Part shown: positions 26,134-33,219 of the stretch, in pieces | Position numbering within the stretch: position 1 is the stretch's first letter | Layout of the letters: each line of letters begins with the position of its first letter | From: Escherichia coli | GTDB lineage: Bacteria; Pseudomonadota; Gammaproteobacteria; Enterobacterales; Enterobacteriaceae | DNA: 64,000 bases | Reading direction: 5' to 3' (one strand) | Assembly: GCF_030384885.1 (NCBI RefSeq) | Contig: NZ_CP128613.1 | Notes under the pieces: model-generated | Databases searched by the model: none | What the model was told of the DNA's origin: nothing | What the model saw: only the letters and a program-made list of their open reading frames with translations | Program-made: the position numbers and the translations under genes

Positions 26134-27447
<1,314 letters not shown>

Positions 27448-27465: not shown

Positions 27466-27498
27466 TAAAAATGCCAGCCTTCGGGCTGGCATTTTTTA
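27466..27498 (+). terminator. Rho-independent terminator after eno (possibly bidirectional)
   Basis: aaaaatGCCAGCCttcgGGCTGGCattttttat: 7-bp GC-rich stem, 4-nt loop, T-run; the minus-strand TPM gene ends 9 nt downstream. Confidence 0.8.
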
Positions 27499-27506
27499 TG
27501 GTTGAG

Positions 27507-28412
27507 TTACCAGCGACCAGAAGCACCGCCACCGCCAGAAGAACCGCCACCTCCGCTAAATCCGCCGCCACTTGAGCCGCCACCGGAAGAGGATGAAGAA
27601 GAACCTTTTCTTGAAGCTCTTTCTTTACCGAGCGTCTTGTATTTGGCCCGTAGCTTTTTATTAACGATAAGCCAAAAGATAACCAGTGGTACGATCGCAA
27701 AAGGCGTTAACATACCGCAGGCAACGATTAAATTCGTCCATGGTCCTGGCTCGGCAACATAGAGGAATACCATCCCGTAAATTGCGGCAGTGAGAGTTAT
27801 CCAGGGTAAATTCGACGGATCGGTAAAAACAATAAAATATGAAAGCACTGCCAGCAATATAATTACAGCAAGCGAAAATGGGATAGGGGGATTGATACTG
27901 TAATAATTCCCCCTGCCTTCCGGTAATTCACCATTCATCAGAAGTGCGCCGATATTTTCGCTTGCCAGTGTTAACCCCCCCATCAGGTCATCACTTTTGA
28001 AAGCAGGGATTAATATATCACGGATAATCTTTGCCGCTTGCAGGTCGGTAACCACCCCTTCCAGCCCATAGCCGACTTCTATACGAACAGCATGATCTTC
28101 CCAGGCAACCAGAAGTAAAATGCCATCGTTTCGCTGCTTATCTCCCAGTTTCCAGCTATCAAAAACGCGTGTTGCATATTGTTCAATGGTATCGTCTCCG
28201 GTGGATGGCACTATTAATACGGCAACCTGTGCCCGTGTTTTTTGTGTAATATCCTGCAGCTGTTGTGTCAGTGATTGTTGTTCAGACATGCTTAAGGTAC
28301 CAGTAATATCGGTCACCTGTTGGCGCAGCTCCGGCACAGCAATTTGCTGGGCAAGCACAGGAAGGCACCATAAAGTGAGTAGAAAAAGGATTATACGCAT
28401 AACGATCACCAA
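27507..28412 (-). CDS. TPM-domain membrane protein (YgcG-like), paralog 3
   Basis: 301-aa ORF with signal peptide, TPM/DUF477-like region (DITGTLS...VAVLIVPSTGDDTIEQYATRVFDSWKLGDK), transmembrane segments and a Gly/Ser-rich tail ending GGGGASGRW; start overlaps the stop of the upstream paralog. Confidence 0.8.
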   Translation of the reverse strand: MVIVMRIILFLLTLWCLPVLAQQIAVPELRQQVTDITGTLSMSEQQSLTQQLQDITQKTRAQVAVLIVPSTGDDTIEQYATRVFDSWKLGDKQRNDGILLLVAWEDHAVRIEVGYGLEGVVTDLQAAKIIRDILIPAFKSDDLMGGLTLASENIGALLMNGELPEGRGNYYSINPPIPFSLAVIILLAVLSYFIVFTDPSNLPWITLTAAIYGMVFLYVAEPGPWTNLIVACGMLTPFAIVPLVIFWLIVNKKLRAKYKTLGKERASRKGSSSSSSGGGSSGGGFSGGGGSSGGGGASGRW

Positions 28413-29554
28413 CGGTCGGATGAACCGCCACCGCCAGAAGAACCGCCGCCACCGCGGAAAGAGTTTTTCGACGAAGAACGAGAATGAGCATTACGATTCC
28501 CCGTTTTCTTGTTGCTTTTATGCCCTGATCCCAGTTTAAGATTGCCAGTAAATTTGGCCACAATGATCAGCAGAACGATGCCAGCAATGGTTATTGGGCC
28601 GATAAAATGATCAATTAGCCCAATAATTGTTGAGATGAACGCAATATCTTTATTACTGGCGAATACCAGGCACCATCCCACAACAATTATCAGCAGCACG
28701 ACAAACAATGAATTTCGTCCTGATTCACGAACCTGCGGAGCCTTCTTTTGTTTTTTCACTTTAGCGTTTTTATTTTGGGGGGCCAGCATCATAGGAAATG
28801 CGCGGCATATATTAAAAACTACCGCGAGACGCTGCCAGCAGATTGCTGCGAAAAATAAACTAAAACAAACGACCGATACCCGTCGAATGATGACATCGTT
28901 CTGAAAGCAGAAAAACCAGACCATAGGGGTAATCATCGATATCATCCATATGCCAGGCCCTGGATGGGTGGTAAATCGCCAGAGGACAACGATGGCAACG
29001 ATCATCAGCAGTGTCCAGGCAAGACATGGCAGAGAGCGTTGCGGATTAGCAAACAGATGATTGGCTAAAGCATCCAAAGGGCTAAGATTCGCTTTTATAT
29101 AGGTAAACTGTGCGATGCCTTCAATTCCCTGCGTTAACCCGGAGAAGAGATTATTTTTTTTGAATTCCGGTTGCATATGGTAATGAACAATTTGCGCAGC
29201 TTGTTCCGGTGGCAGCATCTCTTCCAGTCCATGCCCAATCTTCATTGACGCCAGCCCTTCCGGCCAAACGACGAGAATTAAGATACCTTCGCCGTACCGC
29301 TTCTCTCCAACAGGTTTCCAGTGATATAACCCGTAGCTTTGCGAGGCTGCAAGTTTAATGTCTTTACCCCCAGTGGTCGGCGTTACCAACACGGCAACCT
29401 GAAAGTGGTTTTGCTGCTCGAGAGTCTGTAATTGTTGAGTTAAAGCAGTTTGTTCTTCTGTCGTTAATGTCCCGGTTAAGTCAGTTACTGAAGGCAATTG
29501 TTCAGCGAATGCCTGGAAACCACATAGCATCAGAAGTAAGAGAAAAATACGCAT
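28406..29554 (-). CDS. TPM-domain membrane protein, paralog 2 (polytopic, most divergent)
   Basis: 382-aa ORF with signal peptide MRIFLLLLMLCGFQAFA, TPM-like region, several hydrophobic segments, tail ...GGGGSSGGGGSSDRW. Confidence 0.75.
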   Translation of the reverse strand: MRIFLLLLMLCGFQAFAEQLPSVTDLTGTLTTEEQTALTQQLQTLEQQNHFQVAVLVTPTTGGKDIKLAASQSYGLYHWKPVGEKRYGEGILILVVWPEGLASMKIGHGLEEMLPPEQAAQIVHYHMQPEFKKNNLFSGLTQGIEGIAQFTYIKANLSPLDALANHLFANPQRSLPCLAWTLLMIVAIVVLWRFTTHPGPGIWMISMITPMVWFFCFQNDVIIRRVSVVCFSLFFAAICWQRLAVVFNICRAFPMMLAPQNKNAKVKKQKKAPQVRESGRNSLFVVLLIIVVGWCLVFASNKDIAFISTIIGLIDHFIGPITIAGIVLLIIVAKFTGNLKLGSGHKSNKKTGNRNAHSRSSSKNSFRGGGGSSGGGGSSDRW

Positions 29555-29568
29555 TTCAATTCCTTTTG

Positions 29569-30507
29569 TTACCAGCGCCCGGAGGCGCCACCGCCGCCAG
29601 ATGAACCGCCGCCGCCGCTGAAATTATCATTGTCAAAAGAGGATGAAGAGGAAGATGACGACGATGATGAAGAACGCCTGGAGGCCGAGTTACTTCTTTC
29701 GTAATGTGACGGTCGGTTGGCACTGCGCATCGAATCCCGAACCTTTTTGCCGAAGGGGGTAAAAGCGATGGCGACAGCCAGGAACGGTGTGGCGAAGCAG
29801 AGTAATGTTGCGAGTACTCCCCAGCTTCCGCCGAAACCTGCTATAGGTAAAACAAAGGCCAGTACAATAGCTGTGAAGCAAATTAGTCCCAGCGTTTTGA
29901 AATATCCTCTGGCGGAAATAAAGGTCAGTACTATTGCCCAGACTAACAAAGCCCACCAACCGTTAAAGGGCAAAGGGTGATCGGTCGGTGTTATCGTTGC
30001 TAAATTATTCCCCGTCAGACGATTATCAATATCGCTTATTCCCTTTTGCAAGCCGCCAGCCAGGTCGCCATTTTTAAATGCCGGAATAATACTGTTGCGA
30101 ATAATTTTCCCGGACTGCGCATCCGTAATAACGCCTTCCAGTCCGTAACCGATTTCAATACGCACGGCCTGATCCTGCCAGGCGACTAACAGTAGAATGC
30201 CATCATCGCGGTCTTTATCACCTGGTTTCCAGCTATCGAATACCCGCGTAGCGTACTGCTCGATGGTTTCATCGCCCGTTGTTTCAACCACTAACACGAC
30301 CAGTTGTGCGTGGCTTTTTTGCGTCAGCTCTTTAATCTGATTGGTCAACGTATTTACTTCATCGTTCGTCAATTTGCCGGTTAAGTCATTCACATACCTG
30401 GGTGATTCAGGCACTGGAATTTGTATGGCAAACACAGATGAACAAAAGAAAGCCATAAGGAAGATAAAATTTCGCACAGGACTTCCTCGCTTAATGAGCA
30501 TTAGCAT
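29569..30507 (-). CDS. TPM-domain membrane protein, paralog 1
   Basis: 312-aa ORF with TPM-like region (DLTGKLT...VVLVVETTGDETIEQYATRVFDSWKPGDK), Ser-rich tract, tail ...GGGGSSGGGGASGRW; start overlaps the lemA stop by 17 nt. Confidence 0.8.
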   Translation of the reverse strand: MLMLIKRGSPVRNFIFLMAFFCSSVFAIQIPVPESPRYVNDLTGKLTNDEVNTLTNQIKELTQKSHAQLVVLVVETTGDETIEQYATRVFDSWKPGDKDRDDGILLLVAWQDQAVRIEIGYGLEGVITDAQSGKIIRNSIIPAFKNGDLAGGLQKGISDIDNRLTGNNLATITPTDHPLPFNGWWALLVWAIVLTFISARGYFKTLGLICFTAIVLAFVLPIAGFGGSWGVLATLLCFATPFLAVAIAFTPFGKKVRDSMRSANRPSHYERSNSASRRSSSSSSSSSSSSFDNDNFSGGGGSSGGGGASGRW

Positions 30508-31093
30508 TCTGGCTAAAATCTATTGTTGGGGCTTTACTCACAGCGGCGACATCATCCGGCAAATAATTTTTCTTCGGTGTGTAATCCATGACTTTTGCGG
30601 TTAACACTGCGGGGAATTTGCGGATAGTGACATTATATTGTTCGATGGCTTTAATATATCTTCCTCGCGCAACGGCAATTCGATTTTCACTTCCTTCGAG
30701 CTGTACCATCAAATTTTGATAGAGTTCCTGGGCCTTTAACTCAGGGTAACGTTCACTAATTATCGTTAACTGACCGAGAGTGCGAGACACCTGCGCCTGA
30801 GCTTGTTGCCAGGTTTGTAATTTTTGTTCATCTCCCGGAGTTTGCTGAAGAGCGCTACTGGCGCGATTAGCCTGACTACGTGCCAATGTTACGGCTTCCA
30901 GTACCTCTTGTTCATGGCTGGAATAACCTTTAATACTGGCGACAAGATTAGGAATAAGATCGGCGCGACGTTGATATTGATTTAATACCTCAGACCAGGA
31001 AGCGTTAACCTGCTCATCATAGGTTTGAATATCGTTATATCCACAGCCTGATAAATTGAAAATAAATATAATTACGATGAATATTCTGAGCAT
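30491..31093 (-). CDS. lemA: LemA-family lipoprotein
   Basis: 200-aa ORF with lipoprotein signal/lipobox (IFNLSGCG) and LemA-like coiled region; first gene of a four-gene minus-strand operon. Confidence 0.8.
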   Translation of the reverse strand: MLRIFIVIIFIFNLSGCGYNDIQTYDEQVNASWSEVLNQYQRRADLIPNLVASIKGYSSHEQEVLEAVTLARSQANRASSALQQTPGDEQKLQTWQQAQAQVSRTLGQLTIISERYPELKAQELYQNLMVQLEGSENRIAVARGRYIKAIEQYNVTIRKFPAVLTAKVMDYTPKKNYLPDDVAAVSKAPTIDFSQNANAH

Positions 31094-31265: not shown

Positions 31266-31937
31266 ATGCAGTACCCGATTAACGAGATGTTCCAGACCCT
31301 GCAAGGTGAGGGTTACTTTACCGGCGTCCCCGCCATTTTTATTCGTTTACAGGGATGCCCGGTCGGCTGTGCCTGGTGCGACACCAAACACACCTGGGAA
31401 AAGCTTGAGGATCGGGAAGTCTCCCTTTTCAGCATTCTGGCGAAGACCAAAGAGAGTGATAAGTGGGGGGCGGCGAGCAGTGAAGATTTGCTGGCTGTCA
31501 TTGGTCGTCAGGGATACACCGCGCGGCATGTGGTGATTACGGGTGGTGAGCCTTGCATTCATGATTTGCTGCCACTGACTGACCTGCTCGAAAAGAACGG
31601 TTTTAGCTGCCAGATCGAAACCAGCGGTACTCATGAAGTACGCTGCACGCCGAATACCTGGGTTACCGTATCGCCAAAGCTGAACATGCGCGGCGGCTAT
31701 GAAGTGTTGTCACAGGCACTGGAACGAGCCAACGAAATCAAGCATCCAGTGGGACGCGTACGTGATATTGAAGCACTGGATGAACTACTGGCAACGCTGA
31801 CCGATGATAAACCACGAGTCATTGCACTGCAGCCAATTAGCCAGAAGGACGATGCCACACGTTTGTGCATTGAAACCTGTATTGCGCGTAACTGGCGTTT
31901 ATCGATGCAAACACATAAATATTTAAATATTGCCTGA
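31266..31937 (+). CDS. queE: 7-carboxy-7-deazaguanine synthase (radical SAM)
   Basis: 223-aa ORF MQYPINEMFQTLQGEGYFTGVPAIFIRLQGCPVGCAWCDTKHTW with radical-SAM Cys cluster. Confidence 0.9.
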   Translation: MQYPINEMFQTLQGEGYFTGVPAIFIRLQGCPVGCAWCDTKHTWEKLEDREVSLFSILAKTKESDKWGAASSEDLLAVIGRQGYTARHVVITGGEPCIHDLLPLTDLLEKNGFSCQIETSGTHEVRCTPNTWVTVSPKLNMRGGYEVLSQALERANEIKHPVGRVRDIEALDELLATLTDDKPRVIALQPISQKDDATRLCIETCIARNWRLSMQTHKYLNIA

Positions 31938-32275: not shown

Positions 32276-33219
32276 GAGTTCCCCGCGCCAGCGGGGATAA
32301 ACCGCAAAAACATGCCTCTAATCGCCTCATATCGCCGAGTTCCCCGCGCCAGCGGGGATAAACCGTGAATTCGCGGTCGTCGGTAGTTATTGTCACAGAG
32401 TTCCCCGCGCCAGCGGGGATAAACCGTTTATATCCCCGATACGCACGACGCGGACCGGGAGTTCCCCGCGCCAGCGGGGATAAACCGCCCCGCCCTCCTG
32501 CACCACGATCGCGCCCTCAGAGTTCCCCGCGCCAGCGGGGATAAACCGCCTTACGCCTGCAACCTCGTGCCACAGTTCATGAGTTCCCCGCGCCAGCGGG
32601 GATAAACCGGTTTTCAGTCCAGCGGCAGCTACGAGGAATCGGAGTTCCCCGCGCCAGCGGGGATAAACCGGATGGTTGAGGGTTATATGATGCCAGTTTA
32701 CGGAGTTCCCCGCGCCAGCGGGGATAAACCGGCAAAAACCGGGCAATCGCAAAAAGGCGTAATGAGTTCCCCGCGCCAGCGGGGATAAACCGACGCTGAT
32801 TATTCCGTACCAGTATTGTGAGGCGAGTTCCCCGCGCCAGCGGGGATAAACCGGATGACTCTGTGGCCTGGGTGGTTACCTGTCTGAGTTCCCCGCGCCA
32901 GCGGGGATAAACCGCCCTGCCCGTTTTGCGGGAGTTCCAATGTTGAGAGTTCCCCGCGCCAGCGGGGATAAACCGCATTATTTTTAGACGGTTGCGGGAT
33001 TGGATTAGAGTTCCCCGCGCCAGCGGGGATAAACCGCGGCCTGGTCGATATCTCGCTGCTAGCGTCAAGAGTTCCCCGCGCCAGCGGGGATAAACCGTAA
33101 GATGATCTCACGGAATTGAACGAACTACGGAGTTCCCCGCGCCAGCGGGGATAAACCGGACACAGAGCGCTGCTATAGCGCCTATGCCAAGAGTTCCCCG
33201 CACCAGCGGGAATAAACCA
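32276..33219 (+). CRISPR. Type I-E CRISPR array: 16 repeats, 15 spacers of 32 nt
   Basis: 29-bp repeat GAGTTCCCCGCGCCAGCGGGGATAAACCG at a strict 61-bp period, starting 32276, 32337, 32398 ... 33191; the last repeat is degenerate (gagttccccgcaccagcgggaataaacca); AT-rich leader upstream at about 31940-32275. Confidence 0.97.

Follow-up and report, generated by a model that had tools for sequence, protein, structure and literature searches.

The Gly/Ser-rich tails of three YgcG-type TPM proteins in the eno-queE interval of Escherichia coli: a family-typical C-terminal extension with a conserved end-piece and a predicted cytoplasmic location

Several described systems resemble in part the operon dealt with here, which occupies the minus strand of the eno-queE interval in a 64,000-nucleotide stretch of Escherichia coli DNA (contig NZ_CP128613.1 of assembly GCF_030384885.1; the whole stretch is called the window below) and encodes a LemA family protein and three TPM-domain membrane proteins of the YgcG family, TPM1, TPM2, and TPM3, whose Gly/Ser-rich C-terminal tails are the subject of this text. 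BA41 of Bizionia argentinensis (PDB 5ANP) has the fold and the architecture of TPM1, and its deposited 277-residue sequence ends ...GGGGFGGGGASGGW. It differs from the window proteins by its single transmembrane (TM) helix, against three or five, and by its operon, which includes a stand-alone cytoplasmic TPM protein (BA42) that E. coli lacks. In the BA41 study, the tail is said to have been named a 'C-terminal cytoplasmic low complexity region'. A second case is YgcG of E. coli K-12 (b2778), which also adjoins eno, is 50% identical to TPM1, and ends in the same 17 residues, but which is present as a single copy, has a diverged TM region, and is preceded by the small gene yqcG instead of LemA. 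Psb32/TLP18.3 and its bacterial 'Psb32-like' homologs likewise combine a TPM domain with a membrane anchor placed after it. However, Psb32 itself is devoid of the C-terminal extension of the window proteins, and against the NCBIfam Psb32 model (NF047379) window proteins score 34.3 and 32.7 bits, for a cut-off of 160.

Another membrane protein of interest is YdjH (SamH) of Bacillus subtilis, a product of the pspA-ydjGHI operon, which anchors the cytosolic YdjI and PspA to the membrane and self-interacts in two-hybrid assays (PMC8581546). The reverse primers of that study imply that YdjH ends ...SRGSF and YdjG ...MGGGF (PMC8581546, primer table); in that case, the two membrane proteins that partner the PspA/YdjI system would each end with a Gly-rich segment and an aromatic residue. 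YdjH, a possible analog, differs from the window proteins in that its operon contains PspA and SPFH without LemA, that it has Phe as its last residue, and that it does not carry the exact motif. In the tail of the single-stranded DNA-binding protein (SSB), a Gly-rich disordered linker carries a short conserved tip, which docks into partner proteins by its last, aromatic residue and its carboxylate. The YgcG tail, with its own Gly-rich disordered linker and short conserved tip, may be regarded as a functional analog only, sequence and context being unrelated and the tip being acidic in SSB whereas it is neutral and Gly-rich in YgcG.

Finally, the LPXTG, PEP-CTERM, and GlyGly-CTERM signals share with the YgcG tail a short conserved motif near the C-terminus. 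In these signals, though, the motif is followed by a TM helix and then by a basic cluster, many cargo families bear it, and a dedicated enzyme goes with it, whereas the order in the YgcG tail is TM helix, basic cluster, spacer, and motif, in one family and with no associated enzyme. Neither of the two features that typify sortase, exosortase, and rhombosortase substrates, namely a motif preceding a helix and a basic cluster and the occurrence of several cargoes per genome, was found. The window proteins also do not carry the C-terminal signal of outer-membrane β-barrels, being helical inner-membrane proteins with no barrel. In addition, Pfam gave no match on the bare tail, and none of the sorting-signal models of NCBIfam and Pfam recognized it. 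Literature searches returned passing mentions only, and neither the exact invariant end-piece nor a function for it was found described. The existence of such tails is already recorded in the literature, which makes them a common property of the family and no new finding.

From the sequence comparisons that follow, the three tails are read as a family-typical, selected C-terminal extension of YgcG-type TPM membrane proteins, with a predicted location in the cytoplasm. The two YgcG-type paralogs, TPM1 (27507-28412, minus strand; 301 residues from a TTG start, with the start set at 28409 by the Prokaryotic Genome Annotation Pipeline, PGAP) and TPM3 (29569-30507, minus strand; 312 residues from the first start, PGAP start 30477), and the divergent paralog TPM2 (28406-29554, minus strand; 382 residues and about five TM helices) all exceed the 22.1-bit cut-off of the Pfam TPM_phosphatase profile PF04536, with E values of 1.9e-38, 1.2e-39, and 1.6e-22, respectively. 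A preliminary description of this DNA had reported three TPM paralogs with Gly/Ser-rich tails, and this part of it holds in full: all the open reading frames (ORFs) are present and end exactly as quoted.

The last 17 residues, referred to as the end-piece, follow the consensus [F/W/Y]-S-G-G-G-G-x-[S/F]-G-G-G-G-A-S-G-x-W-COOH. According to the ORFs and the motif pattern match, and for TPM1 also to the family logo, the invariant end-piece FSGGGGSSGGGGASGRW and its stop codon cover 27507-27560 in TPM1 and 29569-29622 in TPM3 (both on the minus strand), and both proteins fit the GGGGASGxW consensus exactly. The translation of TPM2 departs from it, with an end-piece FRGGGGSSGGGGSSDRW (28406-28459 with the stop codon, minus strand) that ends SSDRW and, having S at -4 and D at -2, represents a relaxed form. 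The back-translated pattern GGGGxxGGGGA[S]GxW plus stop finds two matches in the window, compared to none in 100 shuffles. Upstream of the end-piece, TPM1 has a variable Ser/Gly spacer, SSSSSSGGGSSGGG, and a K/R-rich juxtamembrane stretch, NKKLRAKYKTLGKERASRKG, which together span 27561-27662 (minus strand) as delimited from charge, structure prediction, and strain comparison. In TPM3, the spacer consists of a poly-Ser run and then FDNDN (29623-29680, minus strand; ORF translation and tandem repeat).

Conservation of the tail was assessed with TPM1 deprived of its tail (270 residues) as query, so that the tail itself could not drive the retrieval of homologs. Searching 1.84 billion cluster representatives gave 22,298 matches at E<=1e-3, the best 150 of which were inspected; an earlier domain-only protein search, which had yielded only proteins of at most 251 residues, mostly fragments, was kept out of the statistics. 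Among these best 150 matches, the motif ends 114 of the 146 new proteins, and the GGGG...W terminus, for which the preliminary description had called for an alignment of homologs, is accordingly family-wide. Most of the motif-less members are shorter than 240 residues, and the others end in Arg-/Cys-rich strings or in the adaptor-derived 'LSLIHI', so that motif-less homologs seem to be mostly fragments and frameshifts.

A logo built from the 109 homologs ending in W, numbered backwards from that residue, gives the degree of constraint at each position. Position -16 is mostly aromatic (F in 64, W in 8, and Y in 7 of the 109) and -15 is S in 72, after which the first Gly quartet (-14 to -11) is occupied by G in 98, 96, 108, and 108 sequences. 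Position -10 is variable, and -9 is either S (61) or F (46). The second quartet has G in 96 at -8 and in all 109 at each of -7, -6, and -5; it is followed by A in 99 at -4, S in 108 at -3, and G in 97 at -2. The RW end that had been regarded as conserved is so for its second residue only, W being found at position 0 in 109 out of 109 sequences and position -1 being variable (R in 43, S in 36, G in 16). The conserved unit is hence GGGGASG-x-W, and the dipeptide earlier termed aromatic-basic in fact has the basic residue first and the aromatic one second. When positions -10 and -1 of the tail were compared for covariation, the sole signal was a mild enrichment of D-D, inseparable from phylogeny. 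In a 74-sequence alignment, G289, G296, and W301 of the tail are invariant, as are only eight positions of the TPM domain, the end-piece thereby being as conserved as the TPM core.

The occurrence of the motif was also examined at the DNA level, by scanning one genome per species for GGGGxxGGGGA[S]GxW followed by TRR. The resulting loci, at least 120 in number, belong to Alpha-, Beta-, Gamma-, and Deltaproteobacteria, Bacteroidota, Verrucomicrobiota, Lentisphaeria, and Ignavibacteria, with, among the matches listed, further loci in Chlorobi, Nitrospirae, Nitrospinota, Acidobacteria, Myxococcota, and Gracilibacteria. Among these listed matches, the motif is directly followed by TGA, TAA, or TAG in 122 cases out of 122 and never by TGG, although the pattern allows it, and 91 of the 93 motif ORFs that are not cut by the end of the locus carry a TPM domain. 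Two loci were considered as candidates for the motif on a non-TPM protein, and both were rejected. The first (L071) is a frameshifted TPM gene. The second, on a metagenome contig (L118, 519-980, minus strand), is a 153-residue ORF ending GGGGASGKW and located between hrcA-grpE-dnaK and a stand-alone TPM gene, in which a TPM tail continues, in frame, a DnaJ J-domain and its G/F region; its probable origin is either a chimeric assembly or recombination through GGN repeats. Sorting signals are borne by many cargoes, and the motif, confined to one protein family, does not resemble them in this respect.

Comparison of the paralogs points to selection acting on the peptide. TPM1, TPM3, and K-12 YgcG are 44-50% identical overall but identical over their last 17 residues, and the corresponding 54 nucleotides differ at 7 to 10 positions (10 between TPM1 and TPM3), all of these differences being synonymous. 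Such a pattern reflects purifying selection on the peptide and not recent gene conversion, and judging from the sequences the end-piece is under strong purifying selection. The three tail tracts of the window, previously presented as near-identical, share only 67-75% identity over 72 nucleotides and 78-87% over the last 54.

Strain comparison, carried out on nine E. coli genomes and E. albertii, leads to the same picture: the end-piece of TPM1, YgcG, and TPM3 is unchanged throughout, whereas the spacer before it varies, which answers the question of tail length across strains raised in the preliminary description. A GGGS insertion is present in the TPM1 spacer of O157:H7 and PKF11 (305 residues instead of 301), and the Ser run of TPM3 is 8 to 12 residues long depending on the strain. 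These changes match short tandem DNA repeats, one internal to TPM1 (18 nucleotides, 1.9 copies, at 27517-27551) and the other in the Ser run of TPM3 (12 nucleotides, 2.7 copies, at 29642-29673), and in the nine strains the indels are all multiples of three, so that the end-piece stays in frame. The situation of TPM2 is different, its end being SSDRW, SSVRW, or SSGRW according to the E. coli strain, and in E. albertii (L063, 4975-4983) the final Trp codon is replaced by TAG (GGC CGT TAG TGA), leaving a protein that ends ...GGGGASGR. These sequences suggest a relaxed constraint on the TPM2 tail. Besides its extra GGGS unit in TPM1 and its SSVRW end in TPM2, O157:H7 has a premature stop in TPM3 (L004, 3901-4605), the resulting 234-residue protein ending before the last TM helix and having lost the tail.

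With regard to topology, each TPM protein of the window starts with a signal-peptide-like segment and has, after the TPM domain, three hydrophobic helices in the case of TPM1 and TPM3 and about five in that of TPM2. The stretch following the last helix contains 9-10 Lys/Arg against 1-4 acidic residues (10 K/R and one D/E in TPM1). By the positive-inside rule, this K/R-rich stretch predicts a cytoplasmic tail and a TPM domain on the periplasmic side, and TPM1 would thus be made up, over 27507-28412 (minus strand) and according to hydropathy, charge, and the structural model, of a signal peptide, a periplasmic TPM domain, three TM helices, and a cytoplasmic tail. In 202 homologs, a crude hydropathy count gave mostly one or three helices after the domain, and many of the calls of two look like three, so that the odd numbers 1, 3, or 5 prevail.

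AlphaFold2 (AF2), run on TPM1 together with 74 homologs, produced a model with a mean predicted local distance difference test score (pLDDT) of 80.8, exceeding 90 over the TPM domain, whose fold is, from AF2 and Foldseek, an alpha/beta sandwich with a central four-stranded sheet. The Foldseek matches were 5ANP, 7TBR, 2KW7, 3PVH, and 4OA3 (target template-modelling scores, TMt, of 0.74-0.91), the comparison with 5anp_A giving a template-modelling score of 0.91 and a root-mean-square deviation of 1.8 over 145 residues. In the model, the spacer (residues 259-284) has a pLDDT below 50, and the last ten residues (292-301; window 27510-27539) reach 87-97 and form a β-strand from 292 to 300. As the only other strands (33-35, 62-68, 97-103, and 108-114) all belong to the TPM sheet, the tail strand must pair with the sheet of its own protein, a partner deduced from the DSSP string and not from coordinates. 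Such docking in cis would be impossible under the predicted topology, which puts tail and domain on opposite sides of the membrane. A crystal precedent was considered as the source of this docking and ruled out, 5ANP resolving only the 145 residues of the TPM domain, so that the docking was not copied from it. A sequence search of the PDB with the bare tail returned no matches, probably on account of low-complexity filtering.

The genomic context in other bacteria links the tail to a recurrent set of genes. In 53 of the 61 loci with enough flank, the gene immediately upstream of the TPM gene with the tail, on the same strand, is that of LemA, and the window shows the same order. An adjacent second TPM gene, encoding a protein with neither signal peptide nor Gly tail, was found in 56 of 67 loci, and in 55 of these 56 the protein ends in a NELPD-like motif (NELPD-x-P-x-V-L type). 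These second TPM proteins are soluble in 34 cases and have an internal two-helix hydrophobic insert in the other 22, both kinds being confirmed as TPM by Pfam. A three-gene module, in which LemA is accompanied by a periplasmic TPM protein that bears the tail and by a second TPM protein, thus recurs across phyla (loci L005-L124), for instance at L023 (1103-3148), L034 (5786-7790), and L017 (2554-4732), and LemA and TPM genes are the only conserved content of the operon elsewhere; no processing enzyme is conserved in it. By contrast with the single tail-bearing copy of most genomes, the E. coli window and the E. albertii locus have three tail-bearing paralogs instead of a second TPM gene, and no gene of the second type, without signal peptide and with a NELPD-like end, was found in the 64-kb window.

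In terms of mechanism, the most likely possibility, to which we give about an even chance, is that the tail works as a flexible leash of Ser and Gly, with a docking peptide at its end. The protein would start with a signal peptide and continue, in this order, with the TPM domain in the periplasm, TM helices in odd number, a stretch rich in K/R, a Ser/Gly spacer that varies and acts as the flexible leash, and an end-piece acting as a tethered peptide ligand. The glycines of the latter would permit tight backbone packing as an added β-strand, and the terminal Trp and carboxylate would anchor it to a folded cytoplasmic partner, the tail thereby offering a cytoplasmic contact point to a periplasmic LemA-TPM module. 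A more specific version, which we put forward tentatively and would sooner doubt than rely on, is that GGGGASGxW-COOH is a dedicated docking strand, a so far undefined short linear motif, that couples LemA/TPM to a cytoplasmic partner, this being the second TPM protein in most bacteria and something else in E. coli; the strand addition seen with AF2 would then be the real mode of binding placed in the wrong compartment. Where the preliminary description left the choice between sorting and recognition for a tag borne by a flexible linker, a conserved tag of the recognition type is the best reading, and the sorting tag is disfavoured by topology, the lack of any model match, and the restriction to one family.

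A number of points weigh against this docking scheme. E. coli is without the cytoplasmic second TPM gene that most other loci have, and the SSD/V/G-RW variants of TPM2 together with the loss of Trp in E. albertii indicate that at least one paralog may not need the motif. The topology on which the scheme relies is itself a prediction, and the only docking that AF2 proposes is on the periplasmic TPM sheet of the same protein, which may be an artefact. Furthermore, when the cytoplasmic second TPM protein of a Nitrosomonas locus (L023) was fused to 45 residues of its neighbour's tail and modelled with 34 similarly built sequences, the tail remained undocked (pLDDT 42-52), and it was the second TPM protein's own C-terminal PVVL that formed a short strand instead. 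Docking on the co-encoded cytoplasmic TPM protein is weakened as a candidate by this result, which comes from a single test with a 34-sequence alignment.

Among the other explanations, the tail could be a proteolytic or quality-control handle, that is, an initiation site or degron for an AAA+ protease (FtsH, ClpXP, or Lon) that would set the turnover of the protein. With its predicted cytoplasmic location, its more than 40 residues, and its predicted disorder, the tail would suit FtsH, which needs some 20 residues of free tail on the cytoplasmic side to begin degrading membrane proteins, and C-terminal residues are known to define several bacterial degrons. Nevertheless, a simple handle would not call for glycines that are invariant and fixed in position, unfoldases grip Gly-rich tracts poorly, and we know of no degron that resembles GGGGASGxW, which makes this explanation unlikely. 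Of comparable standing, and likewise improbable, is a self-assembly element, in which the Gly-rich ends of subunits or paralogs would pack together, as an intermolecular β-sheet or a polyglycine-type bundle, and hold homo- or hetero-oligomers under the membrane. The strict periodicity of the glycines, with x-S-GGGG occurring twice, and the fact that side chains are not tolerated would fit backbone-to-backbone packing, the same end is borne by three paralogs, and YdjH self-interacts (PMC8581546), but the presence of a single tail-bearing copy in most genomes counts against self-assembly.

Less probable again is a role at the DNA level, in which the GGN/TCN tracts would be substrates of recombination or slippage and provide adaptive variation in copy number or length, in the manner of a contingency locus. 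The in-frame indels of the spacers, which give weak support to the slippage proposed in the preliminary description, speak for such a role, as does an exact run of 24 nucleotides common to the tails of TPM1 and TPM2 (11-13 for the other pairs). The metagenome contig L118, with its junction between the dnaJ G/F region and a TPM tail, goes in the same direction. Moreover, E. coli strains differ in the structure of the eno-queE interval. The region of the window that holds the four genes is 100% identical to that of strain 2013C-4282, and of 5,426 complete E. coli genomes, 1,102 contain at least 80% of this form; an alternative form consists of LemA, a TPM3 pseudogene, and an unrelated 120-residue membrane protein, the K-12 form of ygcG and yqcG, and two dog isolates have mosaic TPM1/ygcG alleles. 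However, the length variants of the nine strains keep the frame and spare the end-piece, so that the mark of a contingency locus, repeat-length changes that shift the frame or switch expression, was not found in these strains. The recombination part of the earlier proposal has little support: the paralog tails are not homogenised, the alternative forms of the locus are gene replacements, and no tail-to-tail deletion or recombinant occurs among the structural variants sampled.

Drift or slippage giving a non-specific low-complexity spacer, devoid of any sequence-specific role, accounts at best for the upstream Ser/Gly part, which varies in length and composition among strains and species and holds short tandem DNA repeats. 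For the end-piece it is contradicted, the last 17 residues being conserved across phyla, always terminal, and different between paralogs by synonymous changes only, and we hold it to be very improbable. The preliminary description would have accepted drift if homologs lacked a conserved C-terminal motif; given that the motif is family-wide, the tails are not low-complexity drift, and the sequences rather support a conserved functional tag. A signal for sorting, secretion, or anchoring, recognized by an export machine or by an enzyme of the sortase kind, although the motif is C-terminal, conserved, Gly-rich, and aromatic at its end, is largely contradicted and hardly credible, the tail being predicted as cytoplasmic and restricted to one family, with no TM helix or basic cluster after the motif, no model match, and no processing enzyme conserved in the operon.

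The remaining features of the locus can be described more briefly. The interval is bordered by eno (26149-27447) and queE (31266-31937), both on the plus strand and assigned from the ORF list and the Pfam scan. The first gene of the operon, on the minus strand at 30491-31093 and adjoining TPM3, encodes the LemA family protein, which has a lipobox LSGC and matches PF04011 with an E value of 1.7e-48. Between TPM2 and TPM1, stop and start overlap at 28406-28412 (TTG at 28412, or PGAP start 28409), which suggests from the sequence a translational coupling in the operon. Between the convergent eno and TPM1, a GC-rich hairpin read from the sequence (27470-27496; GCCAGCC-TTCG-GGCTGGC, with an A-run before and a T-run after) is likely to be a bidirectional terminator, although it is absent from the output of a consensus terminator scan. 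When the four operon proteins were compared with the PADLOC models of anti-phage defence, no family was matched.

On the plus strand, a Pro/Glu-rich ORF at 27502-27762 lies wholly within TPM1 and, as formerly stated, is spurious, since it reads Gly/Ser codons in reverse complement, within a gene whose own frame has a significant Pfam domain. The TPM3 ORF runs intact to ...GASGRW, yet RefSeq/PGAP flags it as a pseudogene ('incomplete; missing C-terminus') with about 224 codons annotated. The same flag is placed on uninterrupted TPM3 ORFs at five other loci (L003, L125, L127, L128, and L129), and it is probably an annotation artefact due to the low-complexity tail or to a truncated reference protein. 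Just downstream of queE, an array of clustered regularly interspaced short palindromic repeats (CRISPR) extends over 32459-32609 with a 61-nucleotide period and the repeat GAGTTCCCCGCGCCAGCGGGGATAAACCG; it is also annotated as CRISPR in the matching RefSeq record, and several listed 'ORFs' at 32365-32752 are its translations.

For genome annotation, the Gly/Ser tails account for the spurious antisense Pro-rich ORFs and, probably, for the pseudogene calls based on a missing C-terminus. For the biology of the family, the tail is the only part of the E. coli TPM proteins that is predicted to face the cytoplasm, and its 17-residue end, conserved like the catalytic-looking TPM core, would be a small and defined handle on the LemA-TPM envelope system, whose operons occur in more than ten bacterial phyla. 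Should the docking strand proposal be true, the tail would constitute the transmembrane output or input port of this widespread envelope system.

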